From positions 32,001 through 96,000 of the IMG/VR virus record IMGVR_UViG_3300047312_000028: 64,000 nt of DNA. One strand, written 5' to 3'. Below are positions 934-1,001 of the stretch, piece after piece. The DNA is from a virus. The stretch's first letter is position 1. Every line of letters starts with the position of its first letter. A program made the position numbers and the translations under genes. The notes beneath the pieces are model-generated. The model saw only the letters and a program-made list of their open reading frames with translations. It ran no database searches and was not told where the DNA came from.

Positions 934-1001
934 GTGCCCTTCAAGTTCAAAGCTTGCGAATCCCGAAAGGGAAAGTGACTGAATAAGTCGAGGGCGCTCC
1001 A
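934..1001 (+). ncRNA. CCA-ended tRNA-shaped RNA lacking an anticodon
   Basis: Acceptor-like stem GTGCCCT/AGGGCGC followed by T and CCA. Three arms: CAAG-TTCAAAG-CTTG, TCCC-GAAA-GGGA (GNRA tetraloop), GAC-TGAATAA-GTC. Confidence 0.6.

Follow-up and report, generated by a model that had tools for sequence, protein, structure and literature searches.

The 64,000-nt stretch of DNA analysed here (the window), comprising bases 32001-96000 of the 176,325-bp IMG/VR virus record IMGVR_UViG_3300047312_000028, carries at positions 934-1001 of the plus strand a 68-nt element that has the shape, the 3' end and the genomic placement of a tRNA and is unable to decode. It forms a four-arm cloverleaf in which 19 of 19 pairs are intact, and its structure and placement are not those of random sequence. 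The explanation that was judged best, with moderate confidence, is that the element is a genuine, structurally maintained, tRNA-shaped but non-decoding RNA within a polycistronic transcript of the phage's tRNAs and ORFs. Unless a genome or locus coordinate is indicated, positions refer to the window.

The acceptor stem is formed by GUGCCCU (934-940) and AGGGCGC (991-997), with 7 of 7 pairs including one U-G, and is followed by the discriminator U998 and an encoded CCA (999-1001). A single U separates its 5' strand from arm 1 in the D-arm position (942-956, CAAG-UUCAAAG-CUUG). The linker CGAA leads to arm 2 in the anticodon position (961-972), a 4-bp UCCC/GGGA helix closed by the GNRA tetraloop GAAA, and the linker AAG leads to arm 3 in the T-arm position (976-990, UGAC-UGAAUAA-GUCG), which joins the 3' strand of the acceptor without a linker. 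The first-pass annotation, made by a model from the letters and the open reading frames, had described an acceptor stem with a discriminator T and CCA, and three arms recognised by a T-loop-like UUCAAAG, UCCC-GAAA-GGGA and GAC-UGAAUAA-GUC, and all of these were recovered at the same positions. RNAfold predicts this cloverleaf as the minimum free energy structure (-25.7 kcal/mol, z = -3.35); of 200 dinucleotide shuffles, one folds equally well. In the middle arm, no alternative with a 7-nt loop has more than two closing pairs. As arm 2 consists of a 4-bp helix capped by GAAA, and its opening to a 7-nt loop leaves two pairs, the element cannot be a decoding tRNA; the earlier claim that it has no anticodon loop and reads no codon therefore holds.

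The usual D- and T-loop nucleotides are absent from their usual arms. The exact T-arm signature G-UUCAAAG-C is present in arm 1, with an estimated frequency of ~1 in 3000 for a random hairpin. The stack of the acceptor on arm 3 amounts to 11 bp, not 12. Four nucleotides of the arm 1 loop (UUCA) are complementary to four of the arm 3 loop (UGAA), and since such complementarity is expected in ~6% of cases by chance (estimate), a kissing elbow formed by these loops is treated only as a possibility.

Compared with canonical tRNA (RF00005), the element has the same four-arm cloverleaf, 7-bp acceptor, discriminator and CCA, the same position and spacing in the array, and is probably likewise an RNase P substrate. 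Where tRNA has a 5-bp anticodon stem and a 7-nt loop (U33, anticodon 34-36), however, the element has 4 bp and GAAA, and it is 68 nt long with a one-nucleotide 8/9 linker. The tRNA elbow (G18G19; G53-T54-Psi55-C56...C61 in the 3' arm) is also absent, as the loop in the D position is UUCAAAG and that of the 3' arm is UGAAUAA, and the T-loop signature is found in the 5' arm and not in the 3' arm. The first-pass annotation had held that a match to a described Rfam family would count against a new RNA. In a 2.4-kb search, no family was found over 934-1001 at its gathering score or at E<=10; the RF00005 gathering threshold (29 bits) was not reached, and the tRNA model gave no match over the element at E<=10. 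ARAGORN made no call over the element in relaxed, mitochondrial (-mt) or tmRNA mode.

As the first-pass annotation had stated, bacteriophage T4 produces non-tRNA small RNAs from its tRNA region; these are RNAC and RNAD, to which no role has been assigned (PMC3014915). Like these, the element would give a non-tRNA RNA encoded on the same strand within a T4-like tRNA cluster and presumably co-processed with it. No sequence relation to RNAC or RNAD was detected, as judged by a blastn search (word 11) of positions 200-2400 against 50,697 phage records, which gave no match over the element; the only two matches, to two Streptomyces phages, involve tRNA-like sequence outside it. The mascRNA-type RNAs of MALAT1 and MEN-beta (PMC8128908), which also have a cloverleaf with a reduced anticodon arm, are excised by tRNA enzymes, end in CCA and do not decode, may be regarded as functional analogues in eukaryotes. 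Unlike the element, they are released from a long non-coding RNA and have their CCA added post-transcriptionally, and there is no homology between the two. The tRNA-like domains of tmRNA (RF00023) and of the Y RNA YrlA (RF02553) similarly mimic tRNA without an anticodon. However, tmRNA has G3:U70, a canonical 3' T arm and a linked mRNA module, whereas the element has G3:C70, no mRNA module and no Rfam match, and a YrlA-type Ro-binding module is absent from it, again with no Rfam match. No description of a phage tRNA mimic with a GNRA-capped anticodon arm was found in the literature. The element is akin to the non-tRNA small RNAs of phage tRNA clusters, the location being the same and the sequence unrelated, and to tRNA-like RNAs.

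The phage is T4-like, with the gp6, gp7 and gp8 baseplate families encoded in the window. Its plus-strand tRNA array spans 23.7-34.1 kb of the genome, with the element near the 3' end, and includes ~43 tRNAs (28 identified by ARAGORN and ~15 non-canonical ones by the Rfam tRNA model and a scan for acceptor plus NCCA), a tmRNA, a class-A RNase P RNA and small ORFs between the tRNAs. The element lies on the same strand, 5 nt behind tRNA-Arg(UCU) (853-928; encoded CCA; ARAGORN; 58.1 bits with the Rfam tRNA model), which agrees with the earlier placing of it in the position of a tRNA. Tight tRNA-tRNA junctions in the array have spacers of 4-7 nt that nearly always start with GU directly after the CCA. 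The 5-nt spacer GUAAC (929-933), a putative RNase P leader of the element, fits this pattern and recurs unchanged between Thr(CGU) and Leu(UAA). A consensus scan revealed no sigma-70-type promoter or intrinsic terminator between the element and its neighbours, which fits co-transcription with them.

The RNase P RNA gene of the phage, a compact bacterial class-A type (176.6 bits with Rfam, E 5e-56), is located at genome 31495-31797 (9495-9797 of the array locus, L082), ~200 nt before the start of the window and ~1.1 kb upstream of the element. The phage tmRNA gene, at genome 28445-28796 (L082 6445-6796; 83.6 bits with Rfam), is separate from the element. The ~15 non-canonical tRNAs have unusual T loops, such as UGCAAGU, GGCAGCA and AGCGUAA, and D loops without GG, and most of them are missed by ARAGORN. 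Examples lie at 234-310, 318-392, 612-686, 691-764 and 2014-2087, many more are present in L082, and tRNAs of these types recur in every relative examined.

The extent to which such an element might arise by chance was assessed with a strict descriptor requiring a 7-bp acceptor with <=2 G-U pairs, N-CCA and three perfect hairpins of >=4 bp with short linkers. A search of the 176-kb genome, both strands included, gave 26 matches, namely 24 tRNAs, the element and one stray match inside a coding sequence (56988-57047, minus strand). Each of 40 dinucleotide-preserving shuffles of the genome gave 0-3 matches, and from their mean of 1.0 per genome ~0.01 matches are expected in the non-coding plus-strand DNA of the array. 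The stray match is the one point in favour of a chance fold without biological meaning. For the element, however, chance is highly improbable given the expectation of ~0.01, the exact tRNA-type spacing, the encoded CCA, the T-loop signature and the GNRA cap.

For homology searches, a covariance model (R1) was built from the single sequence of the element. It had no match in 10-11 full records of related phages and no paralog in the phage's own genome. Over 96 fetched loci plus the window, its non-self matches had only E values of 0.026-8.6, broken stems and no CCA, and a weak match in L177 is on the strand opposite an ORF homolog. In IMG/VR, JGI metagenomes and GTDB genomes, there were 0 exact matches to a 39-mer, 0 to a pattern in which the loops were fixed and the stems free, and 0 to an arm 1-gap-arm 3 pattern, which would also detect a parent tRNA whose anticodon arm was complete. 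Scans by exact matching are insensitive and miss diverged homologs, and as the records closest to this genome may be excluded from the collections, the scans speak only weakly for absence. Among the records searched, only one phage genome has the element. With this single occurrence and no homolog in these records, covariation and conservation provide no evidence of selection.

Relatives of the phage were found through the gp6-like baseplate protein (80 loci), and arrays were taken from five of these; a sixth (L168) was found through a shared tRNA sequence. The order of array genes is conserved in the relatives as Arg(GCG), Lys(CUU), ..., Arg(UCU), Arg(CCU), Arg(UCG), Val(GAC). The Arg(UCU)-Arg(CCU) slot, in which the element lies, could be read in all six (G001-G005 and L168), and the element is present in 0 of 6; R1 likewise found nothing in the arrays taken. 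In G001, G003 and G005 tRNA-Arg(CCU) lies 4-7 nt behind tRNA-Arg(UCU), and in G002, G004 and L168 the slot is occupied by unrelated small ORFs. Only in the genome under study does the slot contain a 384-nt insertion, which is made up of the element and a 101-aa ORF and is followed by tRNA-Arg(CCU) (1313-1389; ARAGORN).

The ORF (1022-1327, plus strand) is preceded by the Shine-Dalgarno sequence GGAG (1013-1016). It is a member of a genuine protein family, for which 55 remote homologs were found; the closest homolog, P0001 (59% identity), is encoded on a 920-bp JGI contig. The ORF is absent from five relatives, and 10 viral loci with homologs have no tRNA-like element upstream. On these grounds, the element and the ORF were rejected as a conserved cassette. 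The ORF product had no Pfam match, and the protein atlas was uninformative. Its AF2 model has a pLDDT of 93.6, and the first 60 residues resemble dsRBD/uS5-N folds (VIA-align Z 5.3-6.9 to dsRBDs, which is weak; Foldseek E>0.3), a match too weak to claim a role for this protein as an RNA-binding partner. The last five codons of the ORF (GCC GUC GUA GUU UAA) coincide with the opening 15 nt of tRNA-Arg(CCU), and the two other ORFs that precede tRNAs (1400-1765 and one ending at 2023) likewise have their stop codons inside the tRNA that follows.

The presence of the element and the ORF in one insertion, found in this phage's slot only, could mean that the element arrived with the ORF as a cis-acting processing signal (tRNA punctuation). 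It would then be a dummy RNase P substrate that separates tRNA-Arg(UCU) from the mRNA of ORF 1022-1327 and may leave a helix-buried, protective 5' end, and the excised RNA would have no job. Bacterial RNase P reads the acceptor, the NCCA and the elbow, which are the parts at issue here, and either a tRNA or the element lies ahead of each of the ORFs at 1022, 1400, 1857 and 2126. The ORF insertion that occupies this slot in G004 likewise begins with a tRNA-like element lacking an anticodon, though a different one. However, the ORFs of G002 and L168 in this slot directly follow tRNA-Arg(UCU), hence a dummy is not needed. The lack of an upstream tRNA-like element at the 10 other phage loci with ORF homologs is a further point against a role in cis, and the AU-rich single strand after the CCA would permit normal tRNA-like release of the element itself. 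A purely cis-acting signal was therefore considered rather unlikely.

The tRNA-like element of G004 is 77 nt long (L166 7766-7842, minus strand), directly follows tRNA-Arg(UCU) and heads a two-ORF insertion. Its acceptor is 9 bp long and is accompanied by a D-like hairpin and a T arm GGGG-AUCGAUA-CCCC; there is no 7-nt anticodon loop, and the 3' end is ACCG. Its similarity to the element is not significant (p = 0.22). G004 also encodes a tmRNA (L166 8197-8507, minus strand) with the tag VESEFALAA, as identified by ARAGORN.

The tRNA arrays of the phage and its relatives are clearly in flux, and the element might accordingly be a neutral relic of tRNA birth and death, i.e. a duplicated or rearranged copy that lost its anticodon arm, is processed by accident and is decaying. 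The restriction of the element to one lineage, with no homologs found, would be expected of such a copy. A second private derivative is indeed present in the genome, a 109-nt CCA-ended tRNA-like element with normal acceptor, D and T arms and a ~50-nt middle arm (genome 27381-27489; L082 5381-5489). Over the 43 nt at its 3' end it shares 81% identity with the adjacent tRNA(CAU), which identifies it as a tandem duplicate whose anticodon arm has changed, and blastn did not find it in the relatives. Glu(CUC) and Arg(UCU), adjacent in G001 and G005, are separated here by an 88-nt spacer (765-852) with an orphan canonical T arm, GAGG-UUCGACU-CCUC, a long hairpin fold (z = -3.1) and no CCA, which is probably a tRNA remnant. 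The relatives have odd tRNA-like pieces of their own. In G003 a 97-nt CCA-ended element with a very long middle arm directly follows Val(UAC) (L165 11257-11353, minus strand), and in G001 the array contains a 50-nt minihelix-like element composed of an acceptor and a T arm and ending in ACCA (L163 8023-8072). In L168, a tRNA (1963-2038) that matches the phage tRNA-Arg(UCU) exactly over its 3' 28 nt has the anticodon UCG, a sign that a single tRNA lineage may have switched anticodons.

In contrast to the tandem duplicate, the element showed no similarity to the tRNAs of the phage and its relatives in blastn-short searches, nor was any of the 43 tRNA-like array genes significant in a shuffle-calibrated global alignment (best z 2.5). 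Hence a relic would have to be old, and yet the 19 pairs, the CCA and the GNRA cap are all intact. The T-loop signature, moreover, is in the wrong arm for a tRNA that had simply decayed. Slow neutral decay of a tRNA gene is thus disfavoured, since neither similarity to tRNA nor a score with the tRNA model remains while every helix is intact, and the relic was regarded as rather unlikely. An origin from the RNase P RNA of the phage was also considered, as the middle hairpin has a 12-nt identity with genome 31627-31638, and was rejected, about one such match being expected by chance.

The readings of the element as a selected RNA, as a relic and as a processing dummy share a predicted first step, cleavage by RNase P before G934. 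The features expected of a substrate, G+1:C72, the 7-bp acceptor, NCCA and a stacked 4-bp arm, are all present in the sequence. Either the host enzyme or one assembled around the phage-encoded RNase P RNA could make this cut, and the determinants recognised would be the 7-bp acceptor stacked on arm 3 and the 3' UCCA. Trimming of the 3' side to the encoded CCA, as in the neighbouring tRNAs, would then give a 68-nt RNA, which is presumed to be stable. With the anticodon position sealed by the GAAA cap, this RNA would neither pair with codons nor be read by anticodon-dependent enzymes, and any role in trans would have to use the acceptor/CCA end and the elbow. The latter may be formed by the UUCA (arm 1)/UGAA (arm 3) kissing contact or by the T-loop motif of arm 1. 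The net effect would be that of a dummy tRNA occupying a protein that reads the acceptor, CCA or elbow end of tRNAs, and such action in trans is the favoured mechanism if the element is a selected RNA.

In its full form this proposal is tentative and, taken as a whole, rather doubtful. It holds that the element is a dedicated dummy tRNA, 68 nt long, matured by RNase P, CCA-ended, with a T-loop in its 5' arm and sealed by GAAA, and that its function in trans would be that of a sponge or decoy, drawing off a protein of the host or the phage that recognises the acceptor/CCA end or the elbow. Candidate targets include a defence toxin acting on tRNA 3' ends by modification or cleavage, and the tRNA-maturation machinery. 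The dsRBD-like protein encoded by the neighbouring ORF might be a partner, and the element would be one case of a wider, undescribed class in large phages. The first-pass annotation had suggested a small RNA that decoys tRNA-targeting defences or acts on the ribosome, a synthetase or EF-Tu, and none of these roles gained support from the analysis.

A further possibility is that the RNA is aminoacylated through acceptor-stem identity alone and serves as a non-ribosomal amino-acid carrier or as a sponge for EF-Tu or a synthetase. Some synthetases charge minihelices, and G1:C72, N2:G71, G3:C70 and U73 resemble the ends of the phage tRNA-Gly and tRNA-Thr, all of which are GC-UCCA. However, the G3:U70 pair of tRNA-Ala and the long variable arm of tRNA-Ser and tRNA-Leu are missing, the 2:71 pair is U:G as opposed to C:G in tRNA-Gly, and there is no conservation. 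A charged carrier is therefore very unlikely.

The near-complete tRNA sets of large phages are currently interpreted as a spare translation kit, one able to withstand host defences that cut tRNAs. If the trans-acting dummy is real, an RNA in which the acceptor end is kept and the anticodon deliberately absent would represent a second use of the tRNA shape by phages, that of titrating or misleading the proteins that handle tRNA ends. The case also shows a possible route to such RNAs, through fast-turnover tRNA arrays that yield private derivatives. On its own, an element from a single genome is a lead and not a discovery.

Other genes of the array include those for an HNH endonuclease, a metallophosphatase, a Rit1/DUSP-like protein and a NADAR protein, and a Tat-signal ORF with a short gp23-like segment. 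An ORF related to peptidyl-tRNA hydrolase (PTH2-like; PF01981, 22.4 bits versus a cut-off of 23 bits) is located at genome 25888-26220 (L082 3888-4220), 6.7 kb upstream of the element, and a non-canonical decoding tRNA(CAU) lies directly 3' of it. In an unrelated phage contig (L179 1800-2700), a homolog of this PTH2-like ORF is followed by tRNA-like pieces and two suppressor tRNAs with the anticodon UUA.
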